A stretch of 64,000 bases of DNA from a bacterium (GCA_016699995.1 CP064996.1:837747-901746), one strand, 5' to 3'. Positions 44,204 to 59,852 are shown, numbered from the stretch's first letter. The notes: generated from the sequence alone by a model not told the origin. Translations and numbers: made by a program.

Positions 44204-44229
44204 AAAACTTTGCTTATGCAAAGTTTTTT
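44202..44229. terminator. perfect palindromic hairpin between nrnA and tRNA-Leu (bidirectional terminator candidate)
   Basis: AAAAAACTTTGC-TTAT-GCAAAGTTTTTT. Confidence 0.6.
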
Positions 44230-44314
44230 GGTGCGCGGGAGAGGACTCGAACCTCCACGCCCTAGGGGCACTGCCACCTCAAGGCAGCCTGGCTACCAGT
44301 TACAGCACCCGCGC
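44229..44314 (-). tRNA. tRNA-Leu (anticodon GAG)
   Basis: 86 nt; long variable arm; anticodon stem CTGCC/GGCAG, loop UUGAGGU; discriminator A; CCA encoded. Confidence 0.85.
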
Positions 44315-44317
44315 TAG

Positions 44318-45004
44318 TTATAAAGACTCAGAAATTATATCTAATGCTTGTTTAATTTTCAATAGCTTACGAGTCAAACATAAACTACTATTTGAATACA
44401 TTTTTCTTAAAATAACCAAGCTCTCTTTTTTGCCATACCTTAATTGATAAACAGAAGAGTTCTTATTTTTACTAATGTGACCAGAGACTCTATATTTTAA
44501 ACTGTTTTGTACCCGTAACCAGTTAATATGATTTTCGCTAGCCGACATAAAAACTAAATAAAACAGAAAACTGGAAGGCCATCTTTTATCTTTGTAAGAA
44601 TAAAAGGTTCCGTCTCCATCAAAATGACCCCTCAAAAAGTCATCATAATATCGTTTTGGAATTTTGACTTCTGCTATAACTTTTGACTTACTAGGCATCA
44701 AGCCGATAGATAGTAAAAACTTATAAAGATTTATACTACCAAACTGTAAAAAGTAGCAGGTGGTTTTAGGTTCTGCACCTCGGATTTTGAGAGATATTTT
44801 ATTGGTTAAGTTAAGAGTATTTTTAACTATATTGACTAACTCTATATCCTTAGACGTAAAATTAATATGCCTACCATCCTTGGAAAGATTTCCATCAGTA
44901 ACGATTAACCCAATAACATAAGCAAAATCAGGGGACCATACAATTTTTTCAAAATGATTAGTGCTCATATCGATATCATACCTCAAGGCGTTAGCGTATA
45001 CCAA
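44318..45004 (-). CDS. LAGLIDADG-family homing endonuclease (two-motif, free-standing)
   Basis: Motif 1 VIGLIVTDGNLSKDG and motif 2 FLRGHFDGDGTF; stop 4 nt from tRNA-Leu 5' end. Confidence 0.75.
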   Translation of the reverse strand: MVYANALRYDIDMSTNHFEKIVWSPDFAYVIGLIVTDGNLSKDGRHINFTSKDIELVNIVKNTLNLTNKISLKIRGAEPKTTCYFLQFGSINLYKFLLSIGLMPSKSKVIAEVKIPKRYYDDFLRGHFDGDGTFYSYKDKRWPSSFLFYLVFMSASENHINWLRVQNSLKYRVSGHISKNKNSSVYQLRYGKKESLVILRKMYSNSSLCLTRKLLKIKQALDIISESL

Positions 45005-45162: not shown

Positions 45163-45448
45163 GCCCTGGTAGCTCAGTGGTAGAGCAGACGCCTGAATCT
45201 TCGGGCCATGCGAGAGTAATTTTGCAATGCAAATCGGGTGAACTCGGGGAACATCTAAATACATTTAGACAATCCCGAGCCAAGCCAAGAACGGGTTAAT
45301 ACTTCTTGGAAGGTGTAGAGACTAGTAGGTGAGCCCAACAATAATCCTACGGATAGCGCCCGACTTCCTTTCCAAAGGAAGATGATATAGTCCAAAATGA
45401 CGCAGGAAGAGCGTCGTGTCGTCAGTTCAATTCTGACCCGGGGCACCA
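45163..45448 (+). tRNA. tRNA-Phe (anticodon GAA) interrupted by a 211-nt group I intron in the anticodon loop
   Basis: 5' exon GCCCTGGTAGCTCAGTGGTAGAGCAGACGCCU; 3' exon GAAGAGCGTCGTGTCGTCAGTTCAATTCTGACCCGGGGCACCA; exons join to a canonical tRNA. Confidence 0.8.
45195..45405 (+). ncRNA. group I self-splicing intron (tRNA-type, IC3-like)
   Basis: Core elements GGTGTAGAGACTAG and GATGATATAGTCC (P7 strands GACUA/UAGUC), GAGCCAAGCC; guide sequence UCUUCGGGC pairs with both exon ends; terminal G precedes 3' exon. Confidence 0.75.
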
Positions 45449-45524
45449 TTAAAAAACAGTGAAATTTTCACTGTTTTTTAATACATAAGTTTTCGTACCG
45501 CTGTGCTATACTTTAAGCATACCC

Positions 45525-46214
45525 ATGAGAAACGATAAAGAAAAGGCACTGAAACTAAGGTTAACAGGAAAAAGCTACACAGAAATAGCTCAAGTTTTAA
45601 AAATTCCCAAAAGCACCCTTTCTACTTGGTTTAAAAACTTGCAATTGTCTAAAATTGCCTCCGATAGGCTAAATGACAAAACCAAGAAGGGGGCCTTAAA
45701 AGGATTGCTCAAAAGAAATGCATTACAAACTAAGCTAGCGCATGCAAAAGCAAAAAAAATCAGATCAGCAGCCATGCTAGAAATAGGAAGACTATCTAAC
45801 AGAGAACTGTTATTGATTGGCGCAGCCTTATATTGGGGTGAGGGTCATAAACGAGCCATTATGAAGAATGGAGTTGCCCGCTCTTACCATCCTGTTAGCC
45901 TATCTAATTCCGATCCGAAACTCGTTGCTATTTTTCTCGAATTTTTAAGAAAAGTTTGCAAGATAGAAGAAAATAGACTAAAAGCTGGCCTAAGAATTTA
46001 TCAACATCAAAATCCTGAGCAGCTCTTGCAATTTTGGTCAAAATTGACTAAAATTCCTAAAGAACGTTTCGAAAAGTTCTACTATGGCGTGAGTAAATCC
46101 ACTCTAAATAAAAGGCCTTACAATGTGCTGCCTTACGGGACAATTCAGGTCAGGATAGGCGACACAGCAACTTTCCATAAGATTATGGGTTGGATAGAGG
46201 GGATTGCAAATTAA
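45525..46214 (+). CDS. HTH-domain protein, possible single-motif LAGLIDADG-like endonuclease
   Basis: 229 aa; N-terminal HTH LTGKSYTEIAQVLKIPKSTLSTWF; LLLIGAALYWGEGHK weakly resembles a LAGLIDADG motif; sits between intron-containing tRNA-Phe and tRNA-Gly. Confidence 0.4.
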   Translation: MRNDKEKALKLRLTGKSYTEIAQVLKIPKSTLSTWFKNLQLSKIASDRLNDKTKKGALKGLLKRNALQTKLAHAKAKKIRSAAMLEIGRLSNRELLLIGAALYWGEGHKRAIMKNGVARSYHPVSLSNSDPKLVAIFLEFLRKVCKIEENRLKAGLRIYQHQNPEQLLQFWSKLTKIPKERFEKFYYGVSKSTLNKRPYNVLPYGTIQVRIGDTATFHKIMGWIEGIAN

Positions 46215-51941: not shown

Positions 51942-52015
51942 GGGGCGGGTCCCTGGTTGGGCAGGATAGACTCGTCACCCTATCCCAGCGGGTTCGATTC
52001 CCGTCCGCTCCACCA
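51942..52015 (+). ncRNA. tRNA-like element with canonical acceptor stem (G3:U70), T-arm and CCA but non-canonical anticodon arm
   Basis: 74 nt; GGGGCGG..GCGGGTTCGATTCCCGT CCGCTCC A CCA; central region folds as 4-6 bp stem with 10-nt loop; partial inverted copy at about 52057..52080. Confidence 0.4.
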
Positions 52016-59775: not shown

Positions 59776-59852
59776 GGGCGTGTAGCTCAGTTGGTTAGAG
59801 CGCCAAGCTTATACCTTGGTGGTCCATGGTTCAAGTCCATGCACGCCCACCA
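59776..59852 (+). tRNA. tRNA-Ile (anticodon UAU)
   Basis: 77 nt; anticodon stem CCAAG/CTTGG, loop CUUAUAC; T-loop GGTTCAAGTCC; discriminator A; CCA encoded. Confidence 0.8.

Follow-up and report, generated by a model that had tools for sequence, protein, structure and literature searches.

The analysed window comprises 64,000 nt of the bacterial genome GCA_016699995.1 (CP064996.1:837747-901746) and carries on its plus strand a tRNA-Phe(GAA) gene that is split in the anticodon loop by a group I intron. The 5' exon (45163..45194, +) covers tRNA positions 1-33 and ends in U33, as seen in the sequence and by ARAGORN on both spliced and unspliced forms. The intron (45195..45405, +; Rfam RF00028) is 211 nt long, begins with G and ends with the terminal (omega) G45405, and the 3' exon (45406..45448, +) covers positions 34-76, with the anticodon GAA first and an encoded CCA last. 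An AT-rich hairpin with a T-run, possibly a terminator, lies directly 3' of the tRNA (45449..45483, +); it was left unflagged by a terminator scan, as it contains too few G-C pairs. Beyond this hairpin, 76 nt after the tRNA-Phe gene, starts an ORF of 229 aa (45525..46214, +), and another ORF of 228 aa (44318..45004, -) is located between tRNA-Leu(GAG) and tRNA-Val(UAC).

With intron detection switched on, ARAGORN called a tRNA-Phe(gaa) interrupted by an intron of 211 nt, and the exons ligated in silico gave a canonical tRNA-Phe cloverleaf of 75 nt with the 7-nt anticodon loop CUGAAGA. The match to the Rfam model RF00028 (Intron_gpI) spans positions 45185-45417 and scores 56.9 bits, above the gathering score of 50 (E = 8.7e-12 over the 64-kb window). 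The split gene was absent from the default ARAGORN list and no match to the Rfam tRNA model was obtained there either, so an intron-blind annotation would score this genome as lacking tRNA-Phe. With GAA next to U33 and a G in front of GAAGA, an identical product would result from four splice registers; the register 33/34 alone has a U at position -1 and a G at omega. On folding, the 231-nt precursor segment was more stable than its shuffles (z = -3.7), and its minimum-energy fold contained P2, P3, P4, P5, P6a, the extra hairpin described below, P8 and a further hairpin in which the intron tail pairs with the 3' exon.

The original prediction had proposed a group I intron of this length in tRNA-Phe(GAA), and its coordinates were reproduced exactly by ARAGORN and RF00028, the latter being the covariance-model check that it had called for and scoring above the gathering threshold. 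It had also named the core motifs GAGCCAAGCC (45277-45286), GGTGTAGAGACTAG (45312-45325) and GATGATATAGTCC (45381-45393), the exon end at U33 with a U33•G pair at the 5' splice site, the G before the 3' exon, which is G45405, as well as the anticodon loop of the product, on which ARAGORN agreed when the exons were joined. All of these were found, and the proposed pairings P1 (GCCU/GGGC) and P10 (GAAGA/UCUUC) were present and covaried across 52 homologous introns. This confirmed that the group I intron at 33/34 of tRNA-Phe(GAA) is real, and that its anatomy had been read correctly in every detail.

The same locus is contained in Table 1 and Table S3 of Nakagawa et al. (2026, mSystems, PMC13011429; preprint 10.1101/2025.07.03.662931). 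Table 1 gives GCA_016699995.1 as Phe (GAA) 33/34, found by the Infernal protocol, ARAGORN and tFind, and Table S3 assigns the genome to the class Doudnabacteria and places the gene at 882909-883194 with the intron at 882941-883151. These coordinates map to 45163-45448 of the window, and intron, length and splice position are identical. One base differs: the sequence in Table S3 ends with ...GGGGCACAA (CACAA), the window and an independent Logan contig with ...GGGGCACCA (CACCA). The suggestion that tRNA-Phe lacks reported group I introns was thus contradicted by this very locus, and the suggestion of an unreported insertion position did not stand either, 33/34 being the usual and classical site of the tRNA-fMet intron (Nakagawa et al., 2026; Williams, 2020), a class named 'fMet.2Ug' by Williams (2020), who reported 21 tRNA/site classes. 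Neither the host tRNA nor the insertion position is new, and the intron, which is of a known kind, has already been catalogued. In the parts of Nakagawa et al. (2026) that were consulted, the Phe(GAA) entry is given with no structure, splicing test or flanking-gene analysis; splicing was tested there for one Asn and one Asp intron, both at 35/36. Table S2 of the same article lists a single tRNA-Phe gene for GCA_016699995.1, by tRNAscan-SE and ARAGORN alike. As this appears to be the only tRNA-Phe gene of the genome, splicing should be essential.

The intron family in tRNA-Phe genes

A single pattern scan of 185,579 GTDB species genomes, in which the pattern consisted of the P7 strands with J6/7, gaps and a guide complementary to GAARA, gave 94 loci. 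At 57 of these, ARAGORN detected a tRNA-Phe(GAA) with an intron of 183-295 nt, so that the group I intron in tRNA-Phe is common rather than isolated and occurs in at least 57 GTDB species representatives. The unique register with U(-1) and G(omega) at 33/34 was found in 52 of the 57 intron-containing loci. Two of these 52 (L060 and L070) were judged atypical and left out, and with the addition of the window sequence the set for analysis comprised 52 sequences. According to the record titles, the genomes, which are MAGs, belong mostly to the Patescibacteria (Saccharibacteria, Magasanikbacteria, Moranbacteria, Paceibacterota and Doudnabacteria); some intron-bearing MAGs are labelled, likewise by record title, as Bdellovibrionales, Gammaproteobacteria or Methylomirabilota.

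The sequences fell into two exon classes. Class A (25/52, including the window) has an exon ending in ...CCU, followed across the splice junction by GAAGA, and the guide UCUUCGGG(C/G), whereas class B (27/52) has ...GACU followed by GAAAA and the guide UUUUCGGUC. Since the exons lay outside the search pattern, the agreement of each guide with its exon was obtained independently.

Two side observations concern the assemblies. The sequence of a Logan contig from SRR11674018 stops precisely at the opening base of the 3' exon, and in the scaffold of L060 an intron-less tRNA-Phe copy is joined to an intron-containing copy via ten N. Both would fit, and hint at, a polymorphism in the presence or absence of the intron.

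Secondary structure, covariation and tertiary contacts

The pairs of P1 and P10 were scored on a fixed-length alignment with an anchor (A2), because the MAFFT alignment (A1) misaligns the 5' exon end. In P1 (45191..45206, +), exon bases GCCU (45191-45194) face guide bases GGGC (45203-45206), with U33•G45203 at the splice site; the P10 guide UCUUC (45198..45202, +) lies in the P1 loop, pairs with GAAGA (45406-45410) and thereby holds the Phe codon UUC opposite the anticodon GAA. Among 21 distinct guide/exon combinations, exon position 31 formed C-G with the guide in 14 and A-U in 7, and exon position 30 formed G-C in 16 and C-G in 5. The second base of the P10 guide paired with exon position 37 as C-G in 14/21 and as U-A in 7/21 combinations (25/52 and 27/52 sequences, respectively), which amounts to a compensatory switch from UCUUC/GAAGA to UUUUC/GAAAA in the other exon class. 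None of the P1 or P10 pairs was broken in the 21 combinations, and U33•G was invariant.

The conserved core P3-P4-P6-P7-P8, with the P3/P7 pseudoknot, was present in full on the plus strand. The P2 hairpin (45209..45226, +) carries a GUAA (GNRA) tetraloop and showed two-sided changes at 7/7 pairs, with 94% of the cells paired. P3 is formed by the 5' strand UCGGGUG (45234-45240) and CGCCCGA (45357-45363) and was 98.9% paired; its two outer pairs covaried (UA/CG/GC and CG/UA/UG). P4 (45244-45249/45273-45278), placed like P5 by the Rfam alignment, encloses P5 (45254-45269) with A-rich J4/5 and J5/4; P4 was 98.4% paired, and P5 covaried, a part of it being misaligned by MAFFT. P6 (45279-45281/45312-45314) is extended by P6a (45285-45291/45303-45309), in which 7/7 pairs covaried and 96% of the cells were paired, and which is closed by a loop, L6a, with GGG at 45293-45295. 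P7, the expected guanosine-binding helix, is made up of GAGACUA (45318-45324, with bulged A45319) and UAGUCC (45388-45393). Its pairing is taken from the Rfam alignment; it was invariant and covariation was uninformative, because P7 was required by the search pattern. Between P7 and the 3' strand of P3 stands an extra hairpin of P7.1 type (45325..45350, +) with the stem GUAGG/CCUAC, all five pairs of which covaried (96.9% paired); its 16-nt loop, UGAGCCCAACAAUAAU, has the nearly invariant family form UGAG(U)CCCAACAAUAAU. P8 (45364-45381) and the following J8/7 (AUGAUA, 45382-45387) were again placed by the Rfam alignment; 7/7 pairs of P8 covaried, and the low pairing of 75% in the MAFFT register was due to a bulge in many members.

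The helices from P2 to P8, including P7.1 and the P3/P7 pseudoknot, were combined in a manual model of 52 pairs, which was counted on the 52-sequence MAFFT alignment A1. In this model 92.6% of the cells were paired, compared with 34-50% in slid controls, and the covariation score was 0.49, compared with 0.06-0.14; by any measure, 0 of 500 shuffles equalled the observed value. RNAalifold independently gave P10, P2, P3, P4, P6, P6a, the P7.1 hairpin and part of P8. The low percentages of P5 and P8 in A1 were considered as evidence against these helices and rejected as artefacts of the misaligned part of P5 and of the bulge in P8. The helix assignments of the Rfam model were not adopted, as P2 was misplaced and the tail/3'-exon hairpin was used as 'P9'; they were replaced by the covariation-checked manual model.

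Two pairings outside the core were found. The bases GGG of L6a (45293-45295) and CCC of the P7.1 loop (45334-45336) covaried in the alignment, with 94.8% of the cells paired and 13 double-change cells against 1.4 in shuffles, and variants occurred as GGA/UCC (4 sequences), GGC/GCC (3 sequences), GAU/AUC and GAC/GUC. This pattern of sequence change indicates a three-base loop-loop contact between L6a and L7.1.

[quoted passage not shown] A P9 hairpin with a GNRA loop is present in class B and in three members of class A. In most of class A, the window included, P7 is followed by no P9 but by a tail of about 13 nt. In the window (45394..45415, +), the tail bases GACGC (45399-45403) pair with the anticodon-stem strand GCGUC (45411-45415), and the 7-nt loop of this helix, composed of AG, the splice site and GAAGA, holds the terminal G as well as the P10 bases. 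A permutation test covered 21 distinct tail/exon combinations with 12 distinct exon strands. In the P9-less subclass the helix between cognate tail and exon had a mean of 4.05 bp, compared with 2.79 bp for non-cognate partners, and 0 of 5000 permutations reached the observed value. The P9-containing subclass (class B) showed no tail/exon helix signal in the permutation test (p = 0.07), so that the helix is claimed for the P9-less subclass alone. A number of tails depart in sequence from the 5' exon strand and still pair via G•U, which favours RNA pairing over a duplicated exon sequence. With exon bases 30-33 engaged in P1, the tail would then take the other strand of the anticodon stem. The tail/exon helix would thus place the 3' splice site in a structure imitating the anticodon stem-loop, in which the UUC of the guide would read GAA in a codon-like manner. 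The missing P9 could reduce autonomous activity. No description of the L6a-L7.1 contact or of a P9-replacing helix was found in the consulted parts of Nakagawa et al. (2026).

The covarying P7.1-type hairpin, with its five covarying pairs at 45325-45350, bears on the subgroup of the intron. In the definition attributed to Michel and Westhof (1990), a helix between the 5' strand of P7 and the 3' strand of P3 (P7.1/P7.2) marks subgroup IA, and the window intron has this IA-type feature. This agrees with Nakagawa et al. (2026), where nearly all Patescibacteria tRNA introns are placed in subgroup IA and none in IC. The tRNA-Asn(GUU) 35/36 intron of GCA_016700035.1 (Saccharimonadia) was found to be 74% identical to the window intron over 203 aligned nt and to have in common with it the same core motifs as well as the P7.1-type hairpin with the loop UGAGCCCAACAAUAAU. 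It differs in the host tRNA, the site (35/36) and the guide, and by a P9 hairpin with a GAAA loop. This Asn intron self-splices in vitro (Nakagawa et al., 2026).

The ORF adjacent to the intron

The 229-aa ORF encodes a predicted N-terminal HTH, a long helix and a C-terminal LAGLIDADG-like domain with the motif LYWGEGHK. Searches of Pfam, NCBIfam and PHROGs gave no match to a curated LAGLIDADG family, and an N-terminal HTH only. At least 300 homologous proteins were found at E <= 1e-5 in a large protein collection, and those with names were mostly annotated as hypothetical or HTH proteins. In 31 homologues the motif has the form LYW(A/G)EG(Y/H)K, with E106, G107 and K109 invariant. By analogy, this motif with the acidic E106 would correspond to the catalytic motif of LAGLIDADG proteins.

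In the 57 intron loci, this ORF family was by far the commonest flanking ORF, with 21 loci in one cluster compared with 5 in the next cluster. The ORF was located 3-214 nt from the tRNA, upstream or downstream depending on the locus, and almost always on the tRNA strand. Eight homologues on long contigs were picked by protein similarity alone; seven of them adjoin an intron-containing tRNA-Phe at a distance of 0-122 nt, with varying neighbouring tRNAs, and the eighth (L105) adjoins an intron-less tRNA-Phe with an unusual D-arm. As only 1 of 95 complete Patescibacteria genomes has a tRNA-Phe intron (Nakagawa et al., 2026), seven out of eight is a very strong enrichment.

As a control, a metagenome scan for the spliced junction GAGCAGACGCCTGAAGAGCGTCGT was performed, which gave at least 120 intron-less tRNA-Phe loci; 64 of these, with the same anticodon arm, had at least 1 kb on both sides. 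Within 1 kb of these 64 loci, one full-length homologue and one fragment were found. The ORF thus accompanied 15 of 32 loci with the intron, as opposed to 1-2 of 64 without it (Fisher p about 6e-8 when the one full-length homologue is counted, or 4e-7 when the fragment is also counted, for loci that are phylogenetically non-independent and come from two collections). It was present in 9/16 class A and 6/16 class B loci, about half of the intron loci being without it. In syntenic clusters of the order Leu(GAG)-Val(UAC)-Phe-Gly(GCC)...Cys-Leu(UAA) with an intron-less Phe gene, the Phe-Gly spacer measured 1-162 nt, compared with 772 nt in the window. One of these clusters (L134), which also shares the upstream IF-2 and DHH genes with the window, lacks the intron and both ORFs. 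These results demonstrated that the ORF tracks the intron and not merely tRNA-Phe.

The 228-aa ORF between tRNA-Leu(GAG) and tRNA-Val(UAC), the second free-standing endonuclease-like gene of this tRNA cluster, resembles a two-domain LAGLIDADG endonuclease (Pfam LAGLIDADG_3, 1.2e-9; PHROG 4645 endonuclease, 9e-29), and the Leu-Val spacer of 755 nt compares with 1-89 nt in the four closest-packed syntenic loci. This LAGLIDADG_3 ORF was considered as a partner of the intron and rejected, as its homologues were found near tRNA-Phe in 2 intron loci only.

Splicing, mobility and comparison with known systems

The observations are best explained jointly by a group I intron inserted between U33 and G34, a tail helix in place of P9, and a flanking ORF that probably encodes a homing endonuclease, a reading to which a probability of roughly 90% is given. 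For the splicing part, in line with the usual chemistry of group I introns, the last four exon bases GCCU and the guide bases GGGC would form P1 with the U33•G wobble, and a free guanosine bound in P7 would attack after U33. The terminal G45405 would next occupy the same site in P7, and with the 3' exon GAAGA held by the guide UCUUC in P10, U33 would be joined to G34, restoring the loop CUGAAGA. From the in vitro splicing of the 74%-identical Asn relative (Nakagawa et al., 2026), we infer that the tRNA-Phe intron is of self-splicing type.

The close association with the intron and the LAGLIDADG-like motif suggest that the product of the 229-aa ORF may be a free-standing homing endonuclease of LAGLIDADG type which travels with the intron. 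It would cut intron-less tRNA-Phe genes, and repair of the cut would introduce its own gene along with the intron. With a single LAGLIDADG domain, such an enzyme would work as a homodimer on a target that is nearly palindromic. The anticodon arm GACGC-CTGAAGA-GCGTC would offer a target of this kind, and the intron would divide it in the middle. The wider proposal is more tentative and, in our judgement, falls somewhat short of an even chance: that the tRNA-Phe introns found in Patescibacteria and in some other bacteria are not immobile relics but spread as an ORF-less ribozyme together with a previously unclassified endonuclease, encoded immediately outside the tRNA gene and cutting the palindromic DNA of the anticodon arm, with the tail acting as a mimic in the P9-less members.

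Several other explanations were weighed against this combination of intron and endonuclease. The 229-aa ORF might be an ordinary DNA-binding regulator or a transposase-like HTH protein that is merely syntenic and unrelated to the intron, but this is unlikely: the ORF lies upstream or downstream and the neighbouring tRNAs vary, while it always abuts tRNA-Phe; it is nearly absent from the 64 loci in which a tRNA-Phe with the same anticodon arm lacks the intron, and the Phe-Gly spacer measures 1-162 nt in the syntenic clusters, against 772 nt in the window. An alternative that accepts a real intron but makes its splicing protein-dependent, with the adjacent LAGLIDADG-like ORF serving as a maturase instead of or besides an endonuclease, is judged quite improbable. 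LAGLIDADG proteins can be maturases, I-AniI being an example; the tight co-occurrence of ORF and intron would suit such a role, as would the lack of P9, a stabilising peripheral element, in the window variant. However, the neighbourhood of about half of the intron loci, P9-less ones among them, contains no such ORF, the acidic residue of the LAGLIDADG-like motif is invariant, which speaks for an enzyme that is still catalytic, and the close structural relative splices protein-free in vitro (Nakagawa et al., 2026).

It is extremely unlikely that the tRNA-Phe gene is dead and its intron decayed, or that the split is a chimera of the assembly. Nothing positive speaks for this, beyond a splice register that is ambiguous by sequence alone owing to the GAA repeat. 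All core helices are intact and covary in at least 52 species with independently assembled genomes, the 3' exon and the downstream sequence recur exactly in a separate Logan assembly, and the published complete genome has one tRNA-Phe gene (Nakagawa et al., 2026, Table S2).

The intron alone adds nothing beyond the published catalogue of intron-rich Patescibacteria tRNA genes. What may be new is that it usually adjoins a stand-alone endonuclease-like gene that may move it. The association with the endonuclease-like ORF, the intron-exon helix in place of P9 and the L6a-L7.1 contact are leads worth recording, and the P7.1-L6a pairing as well as the replacement of P9 by an intron-exon helix are testable features of a minimal natural ribozyme. 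If the ORF family is an active endonuclease, this would explain the persistence and movement of ORF-less tRNA introns in reduced genomes and would represent a new homing-endonuclease architecture aimed at a tRNA gene. Nakagawa et al. (2026), whose analysis was confined to intron interiors, concluded that mobility is limited for tRNA introns with no endonuclease gene inside them; the present reading of the ORF would, if true, qualify this conclusion.

Among known tRNA introns, the classical IC3 introns (tRNA-fMet 33/34, tRNA-Leu 34/35, tRNA-Arg and tRNA-Ile 36/37) are likewise located in the anticodon loop, and they have in common with the window intron a size of about 200-250 nt, a U at -1 and a G at omega. 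The P4, P6 and J6/7-P7 motifs GAAUUCGGGGAA, CCCGAGCCAAG and AAGGUGUAGAGACU are nearly identical to those of the IC3-labelled Ile2 intron in Table S5 of Nakagawa et al. (2026). However, this IC3 example runs from P7 directly to the 3' strand of P3, whereas the window intron has a 26-nt covarying hairpin between them, the loop of which pairs with L6a. Subgroup IC3 was considered and rejected for the window intron, in view of this extra hairpin, of the missing P9, which in the compact IC3 core docks through a tetraloop, and of the statement by Nakagawa et al. (2026) that no Patescibacteria tRNA intron is IC.

As regards mobility, the arrangement is most similar to two phage systems, F-CphI with the psbA intron of cyanophage S-PM2 and T4 mobE/I-TevIII, in which an endonuclease-like gene likewise lies outside an ORF-less intron. 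In the collaborative homing of phages, a free-standing endonuclease is encoded beside an ORF-less intron, and the insertion protects the host allele. As in these phages, the presence of the endonuclease-like gene correlates with that of the intron. Unlike F-CphI and mobE/I-TevIII, the present locus is a bacterial chromosomal tRNA gene, and its putative partner combines an HTH with a single LAGLIDADG-like domain and is a predicted nuclease. If the two-part spread proposed here is true, collaborative homing, so far described in phages, would also operate on a chromosomal bacterial tRNA gene.

LAGLIDADG-like reading frames near the tRNA-Phe gene

Downstream of the intron-bearing tRNA-Phe, the window carries an ORF of about 230 amino acids (45525-46214, forward strand) which combines an HTH with a LAGLIDADG-like domain and belongs to an uncharacterised family. 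A protein search placed at least 300 proteins in this family among the matches listed. Homologues were found at L007, L009, L011, L014, L023, L030, L032, L038, L041, L043, L045, L055, L056, L063, L067, L070, L072, L080, L088, L091, L095 and L096-L104 among the loci compared with the window. Members of the family directly adjoin intron-containing tRNA-Phe genes and are almost never adjacent to intron-less ones. The family is a candidate free-standing homing endonuclease.

The sole homologue found adjoining an intron-less tRNA-Phe is at locus L105 (1202-2693, GCA_964599285.1). The D-arm of this tRNA-Phe is unusual, with GGCAGCAGCG in place of GGTAGAGCAG. The gap between its tRNA-Val and tRNA-Phe genes holds a further 220-aa ORF, for which no Pfam family is recorded.

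A second free-standing ORF (44318-45004, reverse strand) resembles a two-domain LAGLIDADG endonuclease (Pfam LAGLIDADG_3, PHROG 4645). It is flanked on either side by tRNA-Val(UAC), 65 nt from its start, and tRNA-Leu(GAG), 3 nt from its end. In the four closest-packed syntenic loci, which carry an intron-less tRNA-Phe, the Leu-Val spacer measures only 1-89 nt. Homologues of this ORF were located 1.5-3 kb from intron-less tRNA-Phe genes at three loci (L189, L200 and L225).

Loop-loop contact within the tRNA-Phe introns

In the tRNA-Phe intron family, the loop of helix P6a (L6a; GGG, 45293-45295) and the conserved loop of the extra hairpin P7.1 (CCC, 45334-45336) form a three-base loop-loop pairing that covaries, as counted at columns 128-130 versus 194-196 of A1, the MAFFT alignment of 52 tRNA-Phe introns. 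The variants include GGA/UCC, GGC/GCC, GAU/AUC and GAC/GUC. At loci L029 and L100 the conserved P7.1 loop was replaced by a longer, different insert between P7 and P3', and L6a changed in step with it: AGUA with UACU in L029, GUA with UAC in L100. The contact seems to be kept in both introns through different sequences.

Two Acetobacteraceae MAGs (L033 and L035) contain tRNA-Phe introns of about 268 nt which fit the search pattern yet are not typical members. Their guide region differs, and their splice register lacks the terminal G because T occupies the last intron position.

Possible alleles with and without the intron

The Logan contig SRR11674018_1381025 (L001), assembled independently from a public run, stops precisely where the 3' exon begins: its position 1 is the exon's first base, at window position 45406. 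Coexistence of alleles with and without the intron in the sample would break a de Bruijn graph at this point. [quoted passage not shown] The scaffolder seems to have fused an intron-containing allele with an intron-less one.

Other tRNA genes and the published sequence

ARAGORN called tRNA-Leu(GAG) at 44229-44314 (reverse strand), which was absent from the Rfam tRNA matches at the gathering threshold. A 74-nt tRNA-like gene (51942-52015, forward strand) was reported by ARAGORN as tRNA-??? with the four-base anticodon 'cgtc'. Its acceptor stem is GGGGCGG/CCGCUCC with G3•U70, its T-arm is normal, CCA is encoded and the oversized anticodon loop contains CUCGUCAC. In Rfam it gave only a weak tmRNA-type match (21 bits versus a gathering score of 47). 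Positions 59776-59852 (forward strand) encode a tRNA-Ile whose anticodon is UAU, a type uncommon in bacteria.

For this genome, 3 tRNA-Ile genes by tRNAscan-SE and 2 by ARAGORN are given in PMC13011429 (Nakagawa et al., 2026). In Table S3 of that paper the tRNA-Phe ends ...GGGGCACAA, whereas window positions 45446-45448 and the Logan contig agree on ...GGGGCACCA; the table is probably in error here.
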